From: a virus
Taxonomy: Duplodnaviria > Caudoviricetes
Reading direction: 5' to 3' (one strand)
IMG/VR virus record: IMGVR_UViG_3300032335_000094
Location: 1 to 37,839 of that record
DNA: 37,839 bases
The notes beneath the pieces are model-generated. The model did not search any database. It saw only the letters and a program-made list of their open reading frames with translations, and was not told the DNA's origin. This document shows positions 2,402-20,071 of this stretch, one piece after another; the first letter of the stretch is position 1, and every line of letters starts with the position of its first letter. The translations under genes and the position numbers were made by a program.

Positions 2402-2673
2402 TATTGGTTCATCAGCCTCTCGATGGTGACGTTCAGCGCCTTGAGTTCGTCCATCTTCCGAACGAGCCATGCGCGTTTTTGCCCGTGGATTCCAAGAAGG
2501 CTCCCTCTGTGACAATCAGCGCAAAGTGGCATTGAAGTAAACCACTGCCCCTGATTGATCTCGTGGCACTCGCTGGGACCAGAGGCACCGCACACAACGC
2601 AGTCCATCTCCTTGAGCTGAGCAACATGCCTACGCTCTGCTGCCGTCATGGTTGGTTTATTTTTACTCTGCAT
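2401..2673 (-). CDS. Ref/DUF968-like small zinc-binding HNH-type nuclease
   Basis: AERRHVAQLKEMDCVVCG...ECHEI...MPLCADCHRG..GIHG. Confidence 0.7.
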   Translation of the reverse strand: MQSKNKPTMTAAERRHVAQLKEMDCVVCGASGPSECHEINQGQWFTSMPLCADCHRGSLLGIHGQKRAWLVRKMDELKALNVTIERLMNQ

Positions 2674-3181
2674 TTAAATGCCTCCAACTCTCTCTGTTGA
2701 TTATTCTTTTTGCATTGGTCAGACTCAAGCCATATTGCTGAACAGCTTGTTTTGGACTCAGGCCGAGCCTTCTTATTGAGAGAACAACCTCGCTGGTCAA
2801 TTTGACGTTGTTGGCCCTCTCGCCAACTTGCCATGTGCCGTGCAGTTTTTTATCTTGGTGGTTGCCAGATCTTGTGTCCCACCGAAGGTTGCCGACATTG
2901 CAGTTCAGTCGGTTGCCATCGTTGTGACAGGCCTCCAACCCATCAGGCCTCACGCCTTTGAAGGCTTCAAGAACAACCTTGTGCAGAAAAATTTGTTTTC
3001 TTTTCCCGGGGCTAGTCAAGTTGACAACGTAATAACCTCGACTCCCGAGTATTGGGGCAACAATCGCTCCCCCCATCCATTTTTTGTTTCTGCTGTTTTG
3101 GCGTGCAAAAGATCTGACTTTGCCGTCAAAGCTAACCTCATAAAACTCTTCAAAACCCAAGACAGGTTTCCAAATTTCCAT
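2663..3181 (-). CDS. NUMOD4-HNH homing endonuclease
   Basis: MEIWKPVLGFEEFYEVSFDGKVRS (NUMOD4); LHKVVLEAF...ACHNDGNRLNCNVGNLRWDTRSGN (HNH); C-terminal KLT..V..IR DNA-binding helix; RBS GAGG. Confidence 0.92.
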   Translation of the reverse strand: MEIWKPVLGFEEFYEVSFDGKVRSFARQNSRNKKWMGGAIVAPILGSRGYYVVNLTSPGKRKQIFLHKVVLEAFKGVRPDGLEACHNDGNRLNCNVGNLRWDTRSGNHQDKKLHGTWQVGERANNVKLTSEVVLSIRRLGLSPKQAVQQYGLSLTNAKRIINRESWRHLNAE

Positions 3182-3211
3182 GTTGAACCTCACATGCGAA
3201 CCAAAAAGAGT

Positions 3212-3259
3212 GTGGCAGGCAGTGGTTCAATCTGCTTTTCCCCCGCTAAAGGTAGCCAC
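3212..3259 (-). ncRNA. Putative structured cis-regulatory RNA, copy 1 (leader of the HNH gene)
   Basis: GTGGC-TA-CCTT-TAGC-GGGG-GAAAA-GCAG-ATTGAACCA-CTGC-CT-GCCAC; three stems covary with the copy at 7225-7280. Confidence 0.75.
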
Positions 3260-3267
3260 GTTGAATT

Positions 3268-3615
3268 CTACAGCGTAGCCTTCATGATGTTTCGGCTGCT
3301 AGTTTCTTGTGATCGCCAAACCTCGATTCGGGCTTGGGCGGCTATCAGCATCCACCGCAGGCGTTCGCGCCTCTCTACGGCTTGTTTGAGGGCTTCTAGA
3401 TGGTTCTTGTACCGCTCACTGGCGTAAGCCTCACGCTCTTGCATGACAGCGGTCTTGCAGTCCCCTTCTATCTCCGCAATCCGCATCTGTTCGGCTTTGA
3501 TGGTCTTGCGCATCTCTTCCATGTAGATCTTTTCAGCCTCAGCCTGCGCATACTCGCCGGACTGCGCAATCATGTAGTCAACGGCGGCTTGTGGGTCAAT
3601 CAGTTTTTCGCTCAT
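3268..3615 (-). CDS. Hypothetical helical protein (weak UvsY-like resemblance)
   Basis: 115-aa coiled-coil-like ORF, ATGA-coupled upstream. Confidence 0.8.
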   Translation of the reverse strand: MSEKLIDPQAAVDYMIAQSGEYAQAEAEKIYMEEMRKTIKAEQMRIAEIEGDCKTAVMQEREAYASERYKNHLEALKQAVERRERLRWMLIAAQARIEVWRSQETSSRNIMKATL

Positions 3616-4877: not shown

Positions 4878-5151
4878 TTGCTTTCTCCTTGTTCATACGC
4901 TGCCGCAGGTCATCGAGGGCGGCTTTGCCTCGTCGTTTTTCGATGTCATCGCAGACTTGCAGCCACCAAGATCTGGCGGCTGCGGACCCGACCTCGCCAA
5001 TCTTTTTCTTGTGCCGCGAGATCCACTCCCGGGCTTCGCAGTTCTTCATGTGATCTAAGGTCTCCGGTGACCCAAAGGGATCGTCGTACTGCGGACGAGG
5101 AGACGGGGCGACCCTCACGAACTGCATCGAGGTTTTTCTTGGCTTCTTCAT
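4870..5151 (-). CDS. Hypothetical protein (CEAREW...IEKRRG type); start uncertain
   Basis: Stop overlaps the start of the next gene; ATG overlaps the methyltransferase stop. Confidence 0.65.
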   Translation of the reverse strand: MKKPRKTSMQFVRVAPSPRPQYDDPFGSPETLDHMKNCEAREWISRHKKKIGEVGSAAARSWWLQVCDDIEKRRGKAALDDLRQRMNKEKANV

Positions 5152-5158
5152 AGGTCAT
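4946..5158 (-). CDS. Hypothetical protein overlapping the previous ORF in another frame
   Basis: MTYEEAKKNLDAVREG...LWVTGDL, preceded by GAGGAG. Confidence 0.5.
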   Translation of the reverse strand: MTYEEAKKNLDAVREGRPVSSSAVRRSLWVTGDLRSHEELRSPGVDLAAQEKDWRGRVRSRQILVAASLR

Positions 5159-6038
5159 AGCACTCCTCGAATAAGTCCATGGTTTTAGGGCAGCGTTGTG
5201 GAGTGACAACCTTTTTCGGCTTGACTGGCGGTTGAAGGCGCTGCTCTTGAAGCGCACCGTATTCAGGATTCAACTCGCAGCCAAGATACTGCCGTCCGTG
5301 TTGAACTGCCACGGCTGCGGTTGTCCCACTTCCCATGAACGGGTCGAGAACGATGTCGTTTGGACGACTGCCAGACAATATGCACGGCTCGATCAGCGCA
5401 GGCGGGAACGTGGCAAAGTGAGCACCCTTGTAGGGTCGTAACGCCACCTCCCATACGGACCGCTTGTTTTTCCTGCCATCAGCGCCCCAAACCCTCTCTC
5501 CCTCAGAGAATCTGTCGCCCTTGGGGTAGTCGGCGTGATAACCCTCGGCGGATTTGTTGCGCAAAGCTGGGGGAGTCTTTGCCTGCTCCTTGATTGCCTC
5601 GCTGTCAAAAAAGTATTTCCCCGACTTCGACAACAGGAAGATGTATTCATGCGCCTTGGTGCAGCGGTCACGCACTGACTCGGGCATGGGGTTGGGCTTG
5701 TGCCAGATGATGTCTTGGCGCAGCACCCAATTGTCTGCCTGCAAAGCAAGCGCCATTCTCCAAGGAATGCCAAGCAGTTGCTTCCCACTGCCATAGCTGT
5801 CCCCGATGTTCAACCACAGCGTCCCATCGTCAGCCAGCACATCCTTGACGCAGCGAAAGACCTCGACCATTGCAGCGATGTATTGCTCGGGCGTCTGTTC
5901 AAGTCCAATCTGACCTTTGTGACCGTAGTCACGCAAGCCAAAGTAAGGTGGGCTGGTCACGCAGGTTTGCACCTTGACGCCCTCAGCAGCCCACTTGCGC
6001 ATCGTTTCGCGGCAGTCACCAAATTCAATTTTGTTCAT
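5148..6038 (-). CDS. Orphan DNA methyltransferase, N6_N4_Mtase (beta class), probably N4-cytosine
   Basis: GDC, VTSPPY (motif IV) before HFATFP and VLDPFMGSGTT (motif I), then GCELNPEY. Confidence 0.95.
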   Translation of the reverse strand: MNKIEFGDCRETMRKWAAEGVKVQTCVTSPPYFGLRDYGHKGQIGLEQTPEQYIAAMVEVFRCVKDVLADDGTLWLNIGDSYGSGKQLLGIPWRMALALQADNWVLRQDIIWHKPNPMPESVRDRCTKAHEYIFLLSKSGKYFFDSEAIKEQAKTPPALRNKSAEGYHADYPKGDRFSEGERVWGADGRKNKRSVWEVALRPYKGAHFATFPPALIEPCILSGSRPNDIVLDPFMGSGTTAAVAVQHGRQYLGCELNPEYGALQEQRLQPPVKPKKVVTPQRCPKTMDLFEECYDL

Positions 6039-6444
6039 CACTGCCCCTTGTTAAGTTGGCTTTTATGTCCCGCTTGAGTTCAGCCAGCTTGGCAAGAGCC
6101 TCAGACTTGAGCATCTCCGTCCGTGCCTTCTCGTACTGGGTCTGCTGGCGCTCAATACGCATCACAGGCTTGGCAGGGATCTCAGGGCCAGCGTTGCAGG
6201 CTTTCTTGAAAGCAATGGCGGATGGAGGCATACTGATCGGTAGCTGCTCAATGGCGTACTCCAGCGAAGGTTTGTACGTCAGGAACTTGCCCAACTCCTT
6301 GCGCCAGACCGAGCGCACCAACTCAGGGTCAACTTGCTCCCAATGACGGGTGAAGCTGGCCCCGTAAACGGCACTCATGTAGCCAAAGATGTAGTCCAAA
6401 CCCTCCTCGGGCTCACAAAAATCAGTTTCCAAGTAATTTGACAT
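6025..6444 (-). CDS. Putative helicase loader, lambda P-like replication protein
   Basis: Directly downstream of the initiator; YGASFTRHW...W..EL...PPSAIAFKKAC pattern; RBS GGAGG. Confidence 0.55.
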   Translation of the reverse strand: MSNYLETDFCEPEEGLDYIFGYMSAVYGASFTRHWEQVDPELVRSVWRKELGKFLTYKPSLEYAIEQLPISMPPSAIAFKKACNAGPEIPAKPVMRIERQQTQYEKARTEMLKSEALAKLAELKRDIKANLTRGSDEQN

Positions 6445-7189
6445 TGCTGCCTCCACCGATAAGTCCACGGGTAAGGCCACTCATGACCTTTGCGTTACGG
6501 TCGCCTTGGGTCTCGAAACCACCAGAAGGCACTTTCCCGGCCTGATCTTGAGCTTTGGACAGCCAAGCATTCACAAACCTCGCAATGCCAGCGGAGGTCT
6601 TCTGCTTGGTGGGGTTTGACAAAGACCAGACCCGCATCTTCTGCAACTCAGCAACAACGTCAACGGCTGGGTAAGCCTTGGACCACTCATTGACCATCTC
6701 TTGGCTGACACCAAAACCCTTGTTGCCAAGAACGGGAACTTCGACAACCGGCTGAGAGACGCTTTGCGGCTCGACGCTAGTTTGTGTCTTGGGTTTTGTG
6801 TCTTGTGTCTTGGGTACTGTGTTATGTGTAGCATTGCGTTCGGATTGCGCTTGCAATGCGTTCGCATCACTCTTTTCCTTTTGCCAACGGACCTTTGCAC
6901 TTTCGGAGGCCTTGCGGGACTTCTCCCCAGTCTTCTCGATCTCCTTGCTGATGCGCTCTTTCCACCACCCATCAGGGGTGCGGTCGAAGAACTCTTGCAG
7001 TACGGACGCTATGCAGTCGCTATGCGAACGCATACGGATCAACTTGGAGATCTGCTCGATGTCGTCAGGGAGGGGGCGTTCGTGGAGGTAGCACCAGTCG
7101 AGCAGTCGCCGATAGGCGAGGTCTTCCAATGGCTCAAGGTGAGCTGTGTGCGACTGATAGTCGCCAATGTTGAACTGGTAATAGTGCAT
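6422..7189 (-). CDS. YdaU/DUF1376-family replication initiator (lambda O analogue)
   Basis: MHYYQFNIGDYQSHTAHLEPLEDLAYRRLLDWCYLHERPLP signature; internal iteron-like repeats. Confidence 0.9.
   Translation of the reverse strand: MHYYQFNIGDYQSHTAHLEPLEDLAYRRLLDWCYLHERPLPDDIEQISKLIRMRSHSDCIASVLQEFFDRTPDGWWKERISKEIEKTGEKSRKASESAKVRWQKEKSDANALQAQSERNATHNTVPKTQDTKPKTQTSVEPQSVSQPVVEVPVLGNKGFGVSQEMVNEWSKAYPAVDVVAELQKMRVWSLSNPTKQKTSAGIARFVNAWLSKAQDQAGKVPSGGFETQGDRNAKVMSGLTRGLIGGGSNVKLLGN
6782..6863. repeat. Putative replication origin: seven degenerate 7-mers followed by three 11-mers
   Basis: TTGTGTC TTGGGTT TTGTGTC TTGTGTC TTGGGTA CTGTGTT ATGTGTA (6782-6830); GCATTGCGTTC GGATTGCGCTT GCAATGCGTTC (6831-6863). 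Confidence 0.7.
7004..7036. repeat. Second 11-mer iteron-like array, inverted relative to 6831-6863
   Basis: GGACGCTATGC AGTCGCTATGC GAACGCATACG on plus, versus GAACGCATTGC AAGCGCAATCC GAACGCAATGC on minus in the first array. Confidence 0.55.
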
Positions 7190-7224
7190 TTTTAACCTTA
7201 CTTCATCGGTTCACTTCACTGAAG

Positions 7225-7280
7225 AAACATTGGCAGGACGGTGAAGAATCGTCTTTTCGGGAGCTACCCTAGCCACGTTT
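7225..7280 (-). ncRNA. Putative structured cis-regulatory RNA, copy 2 (leader of the replication initiator)
   Basis: AAACGTGGC-TA-GGG-TAGCT-CCC-GAAAA-GACG-ATTCTTCAC-CGTC-CT-GCCAATGTTT; same architecture as copy 1. Confidence 0.75.
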
Positions 7281-7286
7281 CAAAAA

Positions 7287-7316
7287 ATCATATCACCCAA
7301 ACAGGTCCGGGCGCAA
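7287..7316 (-). promoter_or_regulatory. Putative sigma70 promoter just upstream of RNA copy 2
   Basis: TTGCGC-N18-TATGAT with extended -10 TGn. Confidence 0.5.
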
Positions 7317-14030: not shown

Positions 14031-15011
14031 TTAAATTATTGGAAACGGGTTGAATTCATCGCTTGCGGCAGATCCAGCTTCACCATAACCAAGATTTTCC
14101 CCGCCAGTCACAAGAGTAGATCCGCCTCGGAGGTCTCCGGTTGATCCTCTGTAGTTGAGTCCGCTCAAAAATTTCGATATGTCGCTTCCTGAGCTGCCTT
14201 TCCCAACAGCACCAACCAGCGTACCCAAGCCAGCAATCTGTTGCAACGGAGAAGGTGCAAATGCCCCGGGAAGGGCTTCTTTGGTCTCTGCCGTGGTCAT
14301 GGGGTACGTGTATCCACGCATGATCTGAGCCACGTTCTGAGCACGAGTCAGTGGAGCCTCAATTTTCGACTGTTCGTAGCCCAACTCCTGAGCGCCGATG
14401 TCGCCCAAGGTCTTGAGTCCTTGAGTCCCAGCTTGAGACTCGGCTTGACCCAAGCCATAAAGACTCTGACCCGCTTGAATGTCATAGCCGCGATCACGCA
14501 AGGCAGCATCCAAGGCGGTCTTGTAGCCCTCGGAGCGCAGCTTGGCTTGATTGCCGAACAGGTCCGACTGCACGTTGCCCATGGCCTGCCCCATTGCCCC
14601 GGCGTACCTTTGGCTCCCGAAGCCACCCTGACCAGCGAATGCAGCACGCAAAGCGGGAAGCATGCTTTGCTGGACGTTTAGGGCGCTCTGACGACCCATC
14701 TCATTAACCACGTCTTGCTCATACGGGTTGTAGAACTGAGAGATGTCCTGAGCAGATACGCCTTTTGCAGCGCCTTGCAGAGTCGACAAGGACTCGTCCA
14801 TGGGGGTTTGGTAGCGCTCCAAAGTGTCCCGAGCCCCACCGTACAGATCCTGAAGGTTTTGATTCAGTGGAGCAATGCTGGCTGCACCCAACTGCTGTTG
14901 ACCAGTCTGGGCCAGTGAAGACAGGTAGTCCGTCAGGTACTGCGGGGCGGTTTGAGTGGTGCTACCCTTTAACTCCACTTTCCGTGGATCTGGCGCGTCA
15001 AATAAGCTCAT
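14031..15011 (-). CDS. Putative DNA transfer/ejection protein
   Basis: Gln/Gly-rich, FYNPYEQDVV, GGFGSQR, SPLQQIAGLG segments typical of podovirus pilot proteins. Confidence 0.7.
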   Translation of the reverse strand: MSLFDAPDPRKVELKGSTTQTAPQYLTDYLSSLAQTGQQQLGAASIAPLNQNLQDLYGGARDTLERYQTPMDESLSTLQGAAKGVSAQDISQFYNPYEQDVVNEMGRQSALNVQQSMLPALRAAFAGQGGFGSQRYAGAMGQAMGNVQSDLFGNQAKLRSEGYKTALDAALRDRGYDIQAGQSLYGLGQAESQAGTQGLKTLGDIGAQELGYEQSKIEAPLTRAQNVAQIMRGYTYPMTTAETKEALPGAFAPSPLQQIAGLGTLVGAVGKGSSGSDISKFLSGLNYRGSTGDLRGGSTLVTGGENLGYGEAGSAASDEFNPFPII

Positions 15012-18000
15012 GAGGTGCTCCTTTTGCTAGATTTTAAGTAATCCAGCGGGGATTTCAAAGCGGGAGGGGGAAGATCCTTCGGACCCTTAGATCTGGCGCG
15101 GTCACGGATGCCGTGCATCATCTCGTACAACTTGTCGGTTCCAGCCTTTGTGGAGCCGTTACCAAGGGCAGAAACCACGTCGGCAGGGAAGACAAACTCC
15201 CCGTCAGCCAGCCATGCTGGGATGTCGTCCGACTGTCCGTCACCCTTACCAGCAACGTGCTTGCCTTCTTTGAAATTCTCACGTCCTTGGTAATGACCCA
15301 GAGCGCCACCGGACTTTGCCAGCAGAGGAAGCGCCATAGAACCGCCAGAAGCCTTCAGGGGCTCCACGTAGCCGCCCTCCTTGTAGTTTGCTGCCCTGCC
15401 CCCAAGGATGTCGTCGATGCTGTCCTCGGAACCGTAGGAGTAGTAGTTGCTGGTGTTCGGGGCTTCGGGTTCGCCGCCCAAGAGTCTTGCCAGCGCACCG
15501 ATGTCTTTGTCGAACTGTTGTGACTGCTGTTGAGGGTCTGAACGCTGCTGCAAGATTTGCATCAGGCGGGGGTCTACGTTTTGGATCATGGCGTCTCTTT
15601 CAAATTCAGCTTGTATCTCTTTTACCCGAGCAAGTGGGTCGATGGCCTTTTGCGTCTCGCGTGAGCGCAGGGAGGCTGGTTTTAAGTCCATACCAACAGG
15701 CAAACCAACCCCATTAGCACCAACTCTTGATTCTTCCGTGAGTTTAGGTGCAAGTTTTGGAGCTGCTGCAACTTGATTGACAACGGTCGCTGGAGGAGTG
15801 GCCTCTGGAGACACAACTGTTGGAGGCGTAACCGATTGTGGAACAACGGGAGTCTCAACAACAGGCTGCTTCCAGTCTGGAGGAATCTCTGCCTCTTTGA
15901 CTTCAATCACATCACCCGTGTTGACATTCAACTTCACTGTTGTCTGTGTATTGTTGTTGGTGTCAGTCAAGACAGTTGTCTGTGTGTCTTGATTGATTGT
16001 GGTTTGAGTGGTTGTATTGTTGTTGGTGTCAACAGTAGTCGAGGTAGTGGTGTTGGTCTTGGTGTCAACAACCGTCTCGGTGTTTGTGTTTGTGGCGGCG
16101 TCAGCAACAACTGTTGTCTGGGTGTTATTGGCGGTGTCAACGGTAGTCTGTGACGTGGTATTGGTGTTCGCGTCAACAACAGTTGTGGTGTTGCCATCCA
16201 CCACCGTGGTCACGTTGTTGGCGTTGTCCACCGTAGTGGTGACGCCAGTGGCTGCATCAACGGTGGTGTCAGTGTTGGTCGTGGCATTGTTGATCGTGAC
16301 CGTATTAGCGTCTGATGTAACCGTCACATCGTTGCCAGTGCTGACCGCTGCATCCGTTGCCGCCTGAACCACCGTGTTGACGTCAGCACCAGCGTTAACA
16401 GCAGAAGACACGGCGGAGGCCAGTGTTGTGTCTACACTTGCGCCAGCATTTACAGCAGCAGTTACGGCAGAGTCAATAACTACGGCTGGATCTCCACCGG
16501 CATTTAATGCAGCGGTTATTGAAGAATCAACAGCAACAGCCGCTTCAGATCCTGCATTAACCGCAGAAGTGATTGTTGATGCAACCACCTGAGATGTGTC
16601 AGCACCGTTTTCAATCGCAGTGGTCACCACGTTATCAATTGACACGGCAGCGTCCGCGCCATTGGTGATCGCTGCACCAACAGTATTTCCAACGGCAACC
16701 TCAACAGAAGCGCCGCTGTTCAGCGATGTCTGCACAGAGTTTGTGATGACCGAGTTGACGGTCTCTGGATTGTTGGAAGCAACAGCGGTTGAGATGATGT
16801 TGTTGATTGAATCGGTCTGCGCGGCGTCGATGCCAGAGGTTGCGGTTGCCGCACCCTTGCTTACGGCAGTCCCCAAAACGCCCTGCGTGATAGCCTTGTT
16901 GACGTCGATAGCGTTGCCCAAAGCAAGATCCACAGCAGCAGATGAACCCGCCTCTTGAGTTCCACCAACAACGCCCTCAGAGCCTATTTTTGTGGTTCCC
17001 TTTGACAAGACGTTGTCGAGCTTACCAGCGGCAAAATCACCGAGCTTGCCCATCGTTGCTTGAATGACGGCTTCAGTTGCAGCGGCGGCAGCGCCAGCTT
17101 TACGTCCAGCAGACAAACCTTCGGCATGGGTTCCGCCTTTTTTGACAACGTCATCGTATGCCTCAATAACAGCAGCGCCACCCGTGTCGGCAACATCAAT
17201 CAAACCACTGGCAATCATGGTTGGTCTCAACAAGCCGCCACCCAAAAAGAGAGCCGGGATTTCTTGGCGAAGCTCAACGCCAATTTGCCTTGCAAGCCCG
17301 CTTGTCCCGTCCATGATGCGACCAGCCAGAACAGCCAGCTTCTCTGTTCCTTTGGCTTTGCTAATCAGATCAACGGTATCGTTCCAATTTTTGGTGTCCT
17401 GCGGACCATCTCCAAGCGACTGACCCAGTGCTTGCAACTTACTGCCGCCACTGATAATAATGTCAGCAAGAGGCTTGTTGTCAAAAGCCAAGGGTATGCC
17501 GCCCAAGTTCTTTTGAAGCTCACCAGCAGCCTCAAATGCCGAGCTGACGCTCTGAGTAATTGGGCTGTTGGGATTGTTCTTCAGGTACTCGTTTGCAGCA
17601 ACGCCTTGAAGCCTGAATTGCTCGTTCAGGTCTTTGTAAATTTGACCAAGGAAGCCGGTCTTCTCCATCGACTTCAAACCTGCATTCAGGTTGGCGAGTC
17701 GAGCAGTCTCTGCCGCGCTCTGGTCTGGCGCGTTGCCCGTAACCAAGGCGGTATTCTGAGCTGTCAGGCGTGCAGTCTCTGCGGCGCTCTGATCCGTTGC
17801 TGGCTGCACCTTTGGCGCAGATAGATCTGGACGCTCCTCTGCAGTGGCTGTGCTGTACTGCTTGCCGTTCCATGTGAACGTCTGGTTTGGTCCAAGCAGC
17901 TCACGAGCTTGGCTGTAGGCGTCACTGAATCTTGGTGCTTGACTGATCAGATCTAGCCTGTCAGCACGCATGGCGTCGTTTATTGCATTGGTTTCAATCG

Positions 18001-20071
18001 CGCCTTGCAGATCACCAAAGTTTGTGTCAACAGTAGCAGCCCGTGGGTCATACGTTGTCGTGGTGGACAGGTTAGGACCACCAGCATCAATTGGGTTGAT
18101 CTGCACACCCGTTACGGCGTTGGCAGCATCCATGGCGTCTTCATCGGAAGCACCAGCCTCTTTCGCCCTCAAGAAGGCATCAGCACCAGCCTGAGTGATG
18201 GTGTCGTCGTAAGTGCGGTTGGTGATACCGCCAGTTGTACCGCCAGCCGAAGTCCTTGCGGCAACCGTGCCAGCCCTGACAGCAGCATTGATCAGGTCCT
18301 GCTGACTCAGATCACCATCCCGCAGTGTCGATGCTATTGCGTTGTTGACAAATTCTTTCCCGAACGGGGGTAAGTCTTCGTAGCCGGGAATCATGGACTG
18401 AATTTCCGGCATGACTGCGCCAACACCGCCCGTGAGCAGCGTTTGAAATGCCCCATCTTTGCCACCGCCAGTCACCACAGAGCCAGCAACACGACCAGCA
18501 ATGTTTGCACCGGTTTGCCCCACAGCATCAATCACGGATGGCGCACCCGATACAATTTTGCCGACCTCTCCGGCAACCCATGAAGTCAATGCAGCCTTTG
18601 CCACATCCTCAGGCTCCCTGCCAGCCGCCAAGTTCAGTGCAGCAGTTCCAAGTGGTCCACCAAAATATGAAGCCGCTGCTTGCACAACGGTGCCAATAAT
18701 CGGGTCTTCCATGAGCTGCGCAAGGTCGTTGCTTGAGCCGCCGTATGCCGTGTAAAAGTACGGCGTTCCATCATCAGCAAACTGAACGCCATAACCCGTT
18801 CTGCCTTTGCCAGCAAATGTTCCGCTGAAAATGTTCCCACCAGCAAAAGCGTAGTTCGGGTCCAACGCCTCACCAGTTACCTTGTTGCCAAAGGTTTGAC
18901 CAGTTTTAATTACAGGCTTGCCGTCAACAATGGTGACGTCCGAAGAATTTACGGGGGTAAGCGTGCCATAGTCGTCCCCAGCGGCTTGTAGTTCTTGCCC
19001 GTATATGGTTTCAAGTTTCGCGCCAGCCGGAACTGGTATCCAGCCTCTGTCGGGGTCATAAGTCGCATCAATGAGGTTGCCATCTTCATTTGGGTCGATT
19101 TTGCCAACACGTTGACCATTGTAAGTTTTGCCCATCTCATAAACATTTTGATAGGCGTCCACTTTGCCGAACTGATTGATGTCGGTAATGCCAATACTGT
19201 CCAATCTTTTCGCTATGTCCTCAGCAGTTGCAGCGGCAGATCCAAAAGCCTGACCCGTCCACTTATCTGTTATGCCCTGCCCCAAAATTTGGGAAGTCAA
19301 TTTATCAACAGTATTGCCCTGACCTGTGCCTGCACGGTATTCATTGGCGCTAACTTCCTTGCCTGTTGTTTTGTCAAAATATCTGGTGACATCAGGACTA
19401 TATACAGCCGGACCCCCTTCATACTCTGTGTGCGAGTAGGGTCCTTGCTCAGTGCGGACTTCGTACCTGTCGAGGTTCGTTGGTGCGAGGCTGTCGTTGG
19501 GGTGCGACATGGCGTCATCGCCACGAACGCTGGTGACTTGCGAAAGCGCACCCGAAACTGCATCCGCATTTACCTGCTGCGGCTGTGCGAACTCGTTATA
19601 CGCTTGCCCAATAGTTGGCGCAGCAATCCCACGGCTTTCAAGGAATTCACGGGCTGCATCTTGGTTGGCTTTCGTATCACCACCAGCACCCCCAACAAAT
19701 TGGGCATACGCTTCGGCAATTTGTTGTGGAGTGCTTGAAGCTGTCAGGCTTGAATACAGCGGCTCCGAAACGCCCCCGAGAGGGCTGGGCGTAGCGCTTA
19801 CGCTTGGCTGCACAAAAGAAAGTGGCGCAGGCTGGGAATAAACAGGATCGGGGGTGTAGACGGGCGGGGTGTAAACAGGTTCAGGAGCGTAAACGGGAGC
19901 GGGTGCAGCGGCCTCAAAGCGGGACTGTACAGCGCCTACATCAAGACCAGTGACCTGCGCCATCTGTGCAGGCGTCACCCCAAACTGGCTCATGGCCGCA
20001 GCAATGTCCGCATCACTCAGGTTAGAGTTCGATGCTAAATAAGAAGCGACTTGCTCGTTTGTTACGGCCAT
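15008..20071 (-). CDS. Giant 1687-aa virion-associated repeat protein
   Basis: Uninterrupted ORF; 18-aa and Thr-rich repeats; C-terminal GDGQSDDIPAWLADGEFVFPADVV motif. Confidence 0.85.
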   Translation of the reverse strand: MAVTNEQVASYLASNSNLSDADIAAAMSQFGVTPAQMAQVTGLDVGAVQSRFEAAAPAPVYAPEPVYTPPVYTPDPVYSQPAPLSFVQPSVSATPSPLGGVSEPLYSSLTASSTPQQIAEAYAQFVGGAGGDTKANQDAAREFLESRGIAAPTIGQAYNEFAQPQQVNADAVSGALSQVTSVRGDDAMSHPNDSLAPTNLDRYEVRTEQGPYSHTEYEGGPAVYSPDVTRYFDKTTGKEVSANEYRAGTGQGNTVDKLTSQILGQGITDKWTGQAFGSAAATAEDIAKRLDSIGITDINQFGKVDAYQNVYEMGKTYNGQRVGKIDPNEDGNLIDATYDPDRGWIPVPAGAKLETIYGQELQAAGDDYGTLTPVNSSDVTIVDGKPVIKTGQTFGNKVTGEALDPNYAFAGGNIFSGTFAGKGRTGYGVQFADDGTPYFYTAYGGSSNDLAQLMEDPIIGTVVQAAASYFGGPLGTAALNLAAGREPEDVAKAALTSWVAGEVGKIVSGAPSVIDAVGQTGANIAGRVAGSVVTGGGKDGAFQTLLTGGVGAVMPEIQSMIPGYEDLPPFGKEFVNNAIASTLRDGDLSQQDLINAAVRAGTVAARTSAGGTTGGITNRTYDDTITQAGADAFLRAKEAGASDEDAMDAANAVTGVQINPIDAGGPNLSTTTTYDPRAATVDTNFGDLQGAIETNAINDAMRADRLDLISQAPRFSDAYSQARELLGPNQTFTWNGKQYSTATAEERPDLSAPKVQPATDQSAAETARLTAQNTALVTGNAPDQSAAETARLANLNAGLKSMEKTGFLGQIYKDLNEQFRLQGVAANEYLKNNPNSPITQSVSSAFEAAGELQKNLGGIPLAFDNKPLADIIISGGSKLQALGQSLGDGPQDTKNWNDTVDLISKAKGTEKLAVLAGRIMDGTSGLARQIGVELRQEIPALFLGGGLLRPTMIASGLIDVADTGGAAVIEAYDDVVKKGGTHAEGLSAGRKAGAAAAATEAVIQATMGKLGDFAAGKLDNVLSKGTTKIGSEGVVGGTQEAGSSAAVDLALGNAIDVNKAITQGVLGTAVSKGAATATSGIDAAQTDSINNIISTAVASNNPETVNSVITNSVQTSLNSGASVEVAVGNTVGAAITNGADAAVSIDNVVTTAIENGADTSQVVASTITSAVNAGSEAAVAVDSSITAALNAGGDPAVVIDSAVTAAVNAGASVDTTLASAVSSAVNAGADVNTVVQAATDAAVSTGNDVTVTSDANTVTINNATTNTDTTVDAATGVTTTVDNANNVTTVVDGNTTTVVDANTNTTSQTTVDTANNTQTTVVADAATNTNTETVVDTKTNTTTSTTVDTNNNTTTQTTINQDTQTTVLTDTNNNTQTTVKLNVNTGDVIEVKEAEIPPDWKQPVVETPVVPQSVTPPTVVSPEATPPATVVNQVAAAPKLAPKLTEESRVGANGVGLPVGMDLKPASLRSRETQKAIDPLARVKEIQAEFERDAMIQNVDPRLMQILQQRSDPQQQSQQFDKDIGALARLLGGEPEAPNTSNYYSYGSEDSIDDILGGRAANYKEGGYVEPLKASGGSMALPLLAKSGGALGHYQGRENFKEGKHVAGKGDGQSDDIPAWLADGEFVFPADVVSALGNGSTKAGTDKLYEMMHGIRDRARSKGPKDLPPPALKSPLDYLKSSKRSTS

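Follow-up and report, generated by a model that had tools for sequence, protein, structure and literature searches.

Our analysis identified an RNA leader of the int-alpA type directly in front of an HNH endonuclease gene on the minus strand of the window, i.e. the whole 37,839-nt stretch of Caudoviricetes DNA under study (IMG/VR record IMGVR_UViG_3300032335_000094). The variable loop of this leader covaries with two downstream sites, the second of which overlaps the initiation region of the nuclease gene; a -10 box recurs at a conserved position before its first stem, and the leader moves together with nuclease genes. The reading that we favor, with a probability of about 0.45, is that an int-alpA-type leader was inserted together with the HNH gene and acts in cis as a two-state limiter of its translation. 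That translation of the nuclease is restrained by the leader is the natural reading of the sequence and is likely. The stems, loops and both sites that a preliminary description had proposed for this leader (copy 1) are present base for base (Table 1), as are the overlap of site 2 with the Shine-Dalgarno sequence before the ATG and the -10-like hexamer upstream of P1, and the gene behind the leader, which had been called an HNH endonuclease, carries NUMOD4 and HNH_3 domains by Pfam. This description of the element stands, but it had missed the hairpin P4 that displays site 2, the travelling of the leader with the nuclease gene and the fact that replication initiators are the commonest partners.

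Table 1. Features of the two leader copies and of the adjacent genes in the window.
Feature	Position	Strand	Remarks
-10-like hexamer TAGAAT	3265..3270	-	five bases before P1
Three-way junction	3212..3259	-	Rfam int-alpA alignment, model positions 1-71, 29 bits
P1, GTGGC/GCCAC	3259-3255/3216-3212	-	followed by TA before P2
P2, CCTT/GGGG	3252-3249/3244-3241	-	loop TAGC
GAAAA between P2 and P3	3240-3236	-
P3, GCAG/CTGC	3235-3232/3222-3219	-	followed by CT
P3 loop ATTGAACCA, variable recognition loop	3223..3231	-	103 distinct loops among 157 viral homologues
G-free pyrimidine-rich linker with weak U run	3204..3211	-	not convincing as terminator
Site 1 TGGTTC, predicted decoy	3198..3203	-	pseudoknot register with 3' part of loop
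Hairpin P4, CATGT/ACATG	3196-3192/3183-3179	-	site 2 and Shine-Dalgarno sequence in loop, start codon in stem
Site 2 GGTTCAA	3183..3189	-	overlaps Shine-Dalgarno GAGGT 3191-3187
NUMOD4-HNH endonuclease gene, 172 aa, free-standing homing-endonuclease type	2663..3181	-	open frame; Pfam PF07463 6e-13, PF13392 5e-9
Upstream flanking gene, 115 aa	3268..3615	-	no family match
Downstream flanking gene, 90 aa	2401..2673	-	phrog_1588
Second leader copy	7187..7292	-	Rfam int-alpA 39.5 bits on 7279-7212, above cut-off
Copy 2: TATGAT; junction; site 1	7292-7287; 7279-7228; 7219-7214	-	loop ATTCTTCAC
Copy 2: P4 AACC/GGTT; site 2; ATG	7211-7208/7197-7194; 7205-7201; 7189	-
DUF1376 (YdaU-like) replication initiator gene behind copy 2	6422..7189	-	downstream of YdaS/Cro-like gene

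Identity of the element and its second copy

The preliminary description had recognized no named Rfam family; in the Rfam scan, however, positions 3262-3195 matched int-alpA (RF02996) with 29.0 bits, which is below the gathering cut-off of 35.8 (E = 0.036 over all families and 8.3e-6 for this family). Copy 1 shows the same three-way junction, with all three stems and the consensus junction bases, over all 71 positions of the model. Of 20 homologous loci that were tested, 18 match int-alpA and 14 do so above the cut-off; locus L042, whose 44-nt core equals that of copy 1 except for one loop base, passes with 39.0 bits. On the basis of these alignments, copy 1 is to be regarded as a sub-threshold homologue of int-alpA and not as a formal member. 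The element is a variant of a catalogued motif without explained function, and the family itself is not new. The int-alpA model stops approximately at site 1, its printed structure contains neither the loop-site pairing nor P4, and Rfam types the family as “Gene; sRNA.” The motif was reportedly first described by Weinberg et al. in 2017. From the family name, int-alpA is expected in front of phage or mobile-element DNA-handling genes, and the genes behind the leaders belong to this kind, namely the HNH nuclease here and initiators, primases, antirepressors and an integrase in homologues. A literature search conducted mostly outside the subscription papers found no described function or two-site design, whereby the supplement of PMC5737381 may describe pairings. 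The available part of its main text does not name alpA (PMC5737381), int-alpA appears only as a genome-scan match in the available part of PMC12370729, “int-alpA” denotes a gene order in excerpts of PMC13612085, and RF02996 was recovered eight times in viral DNA according to parts of supplement 3 of PMC10690425.

Thermodynamic folding was rejected as a proof of structure (z from -0.55 to +1.16 across both copies). In copy 1 the junction alone is no more stable than shuffled sequences (z = +0.30 for 3170-3270 and +1.16 for 3195-3262), so that the structure rests on comparison and not on energy, and the minimum-energy fold is a competing one, in which the site 2 region takes up the loop and P3 instead. 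Only 41 of 136 leaders show P3 at more than 50% in ensembles of nested structures. The junction pattern gives two matches in the window and none in 100 shuffles; since it was built from these two copies, independent support comes from the Rfam match and from the covariation in homologues. RNA run X20 (word share 0.06) yielded only 151-nt contigs with a depth of about 3 over the element, which show neither transcription nor ends.

The two copies of the window do not cross-match (4 nt compared to 6-7 nt for their own sites). A search of 50 fetched loci revealed five other records with two separate copies, all with unlike loops, whereby the six two-copy records in all are too few to test for loop avoidance.

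Covariation of the loop with two sites and with hairpin P4

By a strict junction pattern, which matches about 3,200 viral stretches, the leader is widespread. From 121 fetched loci and the two matches of the window, 124 matches in total were examined; 111 of these carry the stems, and removal of the 13 without stems and of four duplicates left 107 homologues. The homologues are mutually related, so that all counts given here overstate the number of independent events. The junction letters formed the search pattern and their invariance in these sets is no evidence; strong conservation of the junction bases is shown independently by the Rfam consensus. A Watson-Crick run of at least 5 between the loop and the next 45 nt was found in 93 of the 107 homologues (swapped loops: mean 18, maximum 30) and a loop match in the upstream 45 nt in 9. 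Two separate downstream runs of at least 4 are present in 92 of 107 (swapped-loop mean 24, maximum 37), so the loop-target complementarity that the preliminary description had expected of true homologues is there, as are covarying stem pairs in P1 and P2. Likewise, 6-nt loop matches occur in the downstream 45 nt in 94 of 116 cases compared to 7 in the control, whereas the 300 nt upstream (28 of 116 vs. 25.7) and the gene itself (22 of 116 vs. 27.0) are at control level. Among 120 pattern matches in prokaryote genomes, 12 have stems, and 10 of these 12 have both sites (control 0.6); the remaining 108 without stems were discarded as chance level (42 vs. 33.8, maximum 48), and because of them an estimate of 7,900 prokaryote stretches is mostly noise.

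In an alignment of 22 close relatives, 97% of the cells of site 1 and 89% of those of site 2 are paired, and 4 of 6 and 3 of 6 pairs, respectively, have changed on both sides. The pairing percentage of either site was reached by none of 500 shuffles, and slid controls gave 14-55%, whereby both kinds of control leave the relatedness in. Changes on both sides also occurred in 2 of 5 pairs of P1 and in 3 of 4 pairs of P2, while P3 is invariant among the 22 relatives through the search pattern. At the edge of site 2, G-U pairs are enriched (33 of 58 vs. 22.3 expected, p = 0.003), which points to pairing as RNA; at site 1 there is no such enrichment (26 of 69 vs. 26.2 expected). The G-U counts of alignment A1 were not used, as they stem in part from a misalignment of site 2 in five rows. 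Both sites covary with the loop and the leader is conserved, which supports the earlier reading that its loop pairs with the initiation region; judged by this covariation, the element is real and functional.

Sites 1 and 2 are direct repeats, the loop is the inverted copy of both, and the junction alone folds no better than shuffles, all of which would also be seen if these were DNA-level repeats, such as operator or origin sites, or a non-functional relic. Such an origin is very improbable in view of the compensatory changes in P1, P2, P4 and both sites, the G-U enrichment at site 2 and the fixed place in the 5' leader. Moreover, the same loop is found with unrelated proteins, and different loops are found with homologous ones.

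The two sites differ in their geometry. In copy 1, the loop bases GAACCA form six Watson-Crick pairs with site 1, plus one G-U pair, and the loop bases TTGAACC form seven with site 2, the ATG of the nuclease being located at 3181. Of the 107 homologues, 96 with both sites were compared, and in 90 of them the offset from the junction to the start of site 1 is 10-16 (search range 6-20). Site 1 is flush with the 3' end of the loop, with no unpaired loop base there, in 86 of 96 and leaves 2-3 free bases on the 5' side of the loop in 69 of 96; a flush 3' register with free 5' loop bases is that of an H-type pseudoknot. Site 2 pairs more centrally in the loop and is flush in only 28 of 96. It overlaps the predicted Shine-Dalgarno sequence by at least 2 nt in 86 of 136 homologues and in 134 of 136 no more than 13 nt separate its end from the start, whereby the site search required the start. 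In three sets of two-site loci, a P4 that scores above the threshold encloses site 2 in 58 of 92, 36 of 49 and 8 of 11, compared to 20.5 (maximum 31), 14.9 (maximum 23) and 3.3 (maximum 8) in swap controls. Its stems comprise 63 distinct 5' strands among 102, its loop measures 6-10 nt in 89 of 102, and it begins 0-2 nt after site 1 in 87 of 102. In 85 of 89 cases, the start codon lies within P4 or 0-13 nt beyond its end. By gene class, P4 is present before 26 of 42 initiators and, in two HNH clusters, before 19 of 23 and 11 of 12 genes. Pairing of the loop with site 2 would be a loop-loop contact that locks initiation. The leaders of a primase-like class (L005, L014, L015, L017, L060, L088, L096, L120 and L121) have two strong sites and no P4 (0 of 11), and possibly constitute a subtype with a different mechanism. 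Compared to its closest relative, L327, the window is shorter by three bases between site 1 and P4 (at 3196-3197, minus strand); both sites and P4 are intact despite this difference.

The median site strengths are -7.75 (site 1) and -6.8 kcal/mol (site 2) overall, with site 1 being stronger in 79, both being equal in 32 and site 2 being stronger in 43 of 154 leaders. Before replication initiators, site 2 is weaker by a median of 2.9 kcal/mol (by more than 1 in 32 of 42), and before HNH nucleases both sites are about equal (-0.5 and +0.5), a difference between the gene classes that has a p of 0.06 on distinct loops. Site strengths that are similar overall and vary with the gene class would also suit a static rheostat in cis, where the loop interconverts fast between its sites and the balance, not the order, of the pairings sets a low translation rate; site 1 pairing may in addition hide a ribosome standby stretch. 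We consider this rather unlikely, as P4 alone could set a fixed level, for which a junction and two covarying sites would be costly. With regard to the two-state limiter, site 2 of copy 1 is the stronger partner (-9.3 compared to -8.1 kcal/mol for site 1), as a final lock needs. The main difficulty of the limiter is the weak site 2 before initiators, where the flip would be uphill unless loop-loop stacking pays for it; P4 is also missing in one class.

Nuclease cassette, putative promoter and linker

The record that forms the window is linear and represents an about 68% complete phage. Its minus strand carries a replication/recombination block with a YdaS/Cro-like gene, the DUF1376 initiator, a DNA methyltransferase, a RusA-like resolvase, small genes and the HNH nuclease (NUMOD4 and HNH_3 domains; PHROG 1492 and 59). 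Mobility was assessed in the best 80 of 307 relatives of the upstream flanking gene, of which the close relatives are IMG/VR contigs. In 37 of these 80 the site is empty and the downstream gene is directly coupled to the upstream gene, 40 show other arrangements, and in 3 (L327, L362 and L363) a leader follows directly after the stop. L327 has the same nuclease as the window, L362 and L363 have a different loop, L362 also has a different HNH protein, and two of the three leader-bearing relatives carry another nuclease. The empty-site relatives read GTGA at the coupling sequence, which is replaced by a TA(G/A)AAT hexamer in the window and in the three leader-bearing relatives; in the window, the TAG of this hexamer doubles as the stop codon of the upstream gene and marks the left boundary of the insertion. 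Contigs of two DNA runs match the upstream gene and the leader up to the ATG and then diverge, and in DNA run X10 the contig rejoins at 2457 with 743 other letters between. The leader thus belongs to the inserted cassette, and it can persist when the gene that follows it is replaced.

At the intergenic site of the window cassette, L362 carries another HNH nuclease (L362:2840-3430, plus strand), which likewise has an int-alpA-type leader and a -10 hexamer of its own, and a site shared by two nuclease cassettes suggests an insertion hot spot. A further optional insert of the window is the DNA methyltransferase gene (5148-6041, minus strand), which is skipped in contigs of three DNA runs (joint from 5158 to 6055, with about 16 other letters between). 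Imperfect repeats of 30-36 nt (families D1 and D2) at 15936-16192 lie within a 1,687-aa gene (15008-20071) and are probably coding repeats.

A called gene follows the leader in 145 of 157 homologues, and the largest clusters, formed by similarity and labelled from representative members, are initiators (43), HNH nucleases (24, 12 and 5) and primase-like proteins (15); antirepressors and an integrase were found among 58 scanned proteins. A BLAST search of cultured phages with copy 1 returned three short matches; homologues of other members are present in such phages, and 57 of 5,426 E. coli genomes also have them. One homologous leader region, which is unannotated as RNA, is located in Enterobacter phage Tyrion (KX231829; L436:1501-1606, plus strand), and similar matches occur in Edwardsiella GF-2, Vibrio, Klebsiella and Pseudomonas phages. 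Tyrion and the other cultured-phage and E. coli homologues are useful for experiments.

Among 157 viral homologues, 82 have a -10 match at a distance of 5-12 nt upstream of GGCTA, most often 8 nt (7 nt in copy 1), whereas control windows 21-107 nt further upstream give 7-13 matches, so the position of the hexamer pointed out in the preliminary description is a conserved one. A family-wide artefact of stop codons was rejected, since 54 of the 82 boxes do not overlap the upstream stop, whereby the overlap in copy 1 is real. A -35 match is present in 27 of 80, compared to 13.4 in displaced controls. A sigma-70 scan, which needs a -35 box, found no promoter at copy 1, and as there is no good -35 box, copy 1 may depend on activation or read-through. 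The transcript is predicted to begin approximately with the first base of P1. In 74 of 157 homologues, the stop of an upstream gene is found 10-19 nt ahead of GGCTA. A stop at such a distance, together with the strongly conserved junction bases of the Rfam consensus, which would be expected of a binding pocket, might indicate a triggered switch, in which the loop is moved between its two sites by a metabolite, an ion, a protein of host or phage or a ribosome that halts at the upstream gene. This seems quite unlikely to us, because the unrelated partner genes argue against autoregulation by a product, the context suggests no ligand and the stop spacing may reflect insertion at gene ends.

The linker behind the junction is nearly free of G (15 G among 785 positions at 7-11 nt after the junction), and the Rfam consensus of int-alpA has a U run after P1. 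However, at least six T within the 8 nt after P1 are present in only 12 of 157 homologues, the linker begins with TTT in 2 of 96, and no intrinsic terminator is listed at copy 1; a terminator model was thus rejected as not general for the family. These data bear on the possibility of a trans-acting self-repressor in the manner of P1 C4, P4 CI or IsrK, whereby site 1 masks the loop in cis and a short junction RNA without site 1, released when transcription terminates or the RNA decays within the U-rich linker, accumulates and binds to site 2 on leaders of full length. The flush 3' pairing and the fixed spacing also fit such a trans partner, a target displayed in a hairpin loop, as in P4, is typical of antisense recognition, and the large number of distinct loops suggests a diversifying specificity. 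The lack of cross-match between the two window copies and the unlike loops of all five other two-copy records are in line with this, and the short isoform of IsrK acts on its own long transcript (PMC4825925, in part). On the other hand, unlike loops in six two-copy records are mostly expected by chance, and the loop ATTCGTTAC serves initiators and HNH genes in different phages. Because upstream targets and a general terminator are missing, antisense action in trans is less likely than the limiter in cis and on the whole unlikely.

Comparison with known systems and proposed mode of action

The C4 RNA of P1/P7 (Rfam RF01695) and the CI RNA of P4 are likewise small branched phage RNAs, the unpaired parts of which match their own locus, and, similar to C4, some homologues of the present leader precede antirepressor genes. 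No match to Rfam C4 was found in the window (E up to 5) or in 20 homologous loci (E up to 1). The C4 antisense RNA is treated in PMC2864571, and the CI RNA is cut from a precursor and pairs with upstream and downstream sites (PMC4825925; parts of both papers). In contrast to CI, the present leader has one loop with two targets within 45 nt downstream and none upstream, and the -10 box, which is placed for a start at P1, argues against a long 5' precursor. A processed antisense RNA of the C4/CI type, which the preliminary description had considered, has thereby lost ground, as there are no upstream targets, the RNA seems to begin at P1 and a general terminator is missing. IsrK of Gifsy-1 is also a structured 5' part of a phage transcript that controls a potentially harmful product, but it has a terminator and activates in trans (PMC4825925, in part), whereas the present leader lacks a general terminator; the Rfam scan gave no match to the IsrK family in the window.

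Closer in context are the nuclease cassettes of the T4 type (I-TevI, segB and mobE), which possess their own promoter and an RNA structure over the RBS and provide a precedent for RBS-hiding hairpins on homing endonucleases (PMC2988022, in part). These simple hairpins are bypassed by a late promoter inside them (PMC2988022); here, in contrast, the putative promoter precedes the entire structure, and the hairpin would be acted on by a separate loop that has two alternative partners. The functional analogue is the leader of the Levivirus (MS2) maturation gene, whose transient permissive fold delays the anti-Shine-Dalgarno pairing and allows brief translation (PMC4615214, in part). It is a precedent for such a fold, but it is unrelated in sequence and structure and belongs to an RNA phage, with nested pairing instead of a pseudoknot and a loop-loop contact (PMC4615214).

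A two-state limiter acting in cis is the simplest model, since the loop can occupy only one of its sites at a time, site 1 being transcribed before site 2 and site 2 being located on the initiation region. Transcription would start at P1 from the -10 box, and the junction would fold and present its P3 loop. Site 1, which is made first, would capture the loop as a pseudoknot and serve as a decoy, leaving only the weak P4 over the initiation region, so that ribosomes could load on the young transcript. The loop would subsequently shift to site 2 in the loop of P4, whereby the loop-loop contact would lock the Shine-Dalgarno sequence and the start codon. In this way, each transcript would yield a short burst of protein.

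For a family that was catalogued without a function, the comparison gives a precise and testable design with many natural loop codes, and the model gains precision from P4, from the statistics on the promoter and from the comparison with empty sites. A wider reading, which we put forward only tentatively, would see int-alpA as a portable RNA timer that needs no protein and is in use in many phyla of bacteria, with a fixed scaffold, a recodable loop of 6-8 nt, a decoy and a lock displayed in a hairpin. It is equally tentative that such a timer would let the transcripts of initiators and selfish nucleases be translated only briefly, with the loop codes keeping the genes independent and the nucleases carrying the device along with its promoter. 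If the timer or the trans model is true, it would explain how phages adjust the dose of their replication initiators and how free-standing nucleases come to be under restraint from their arrival on, and it would offer a small orthogonal RNA switch for engineering.
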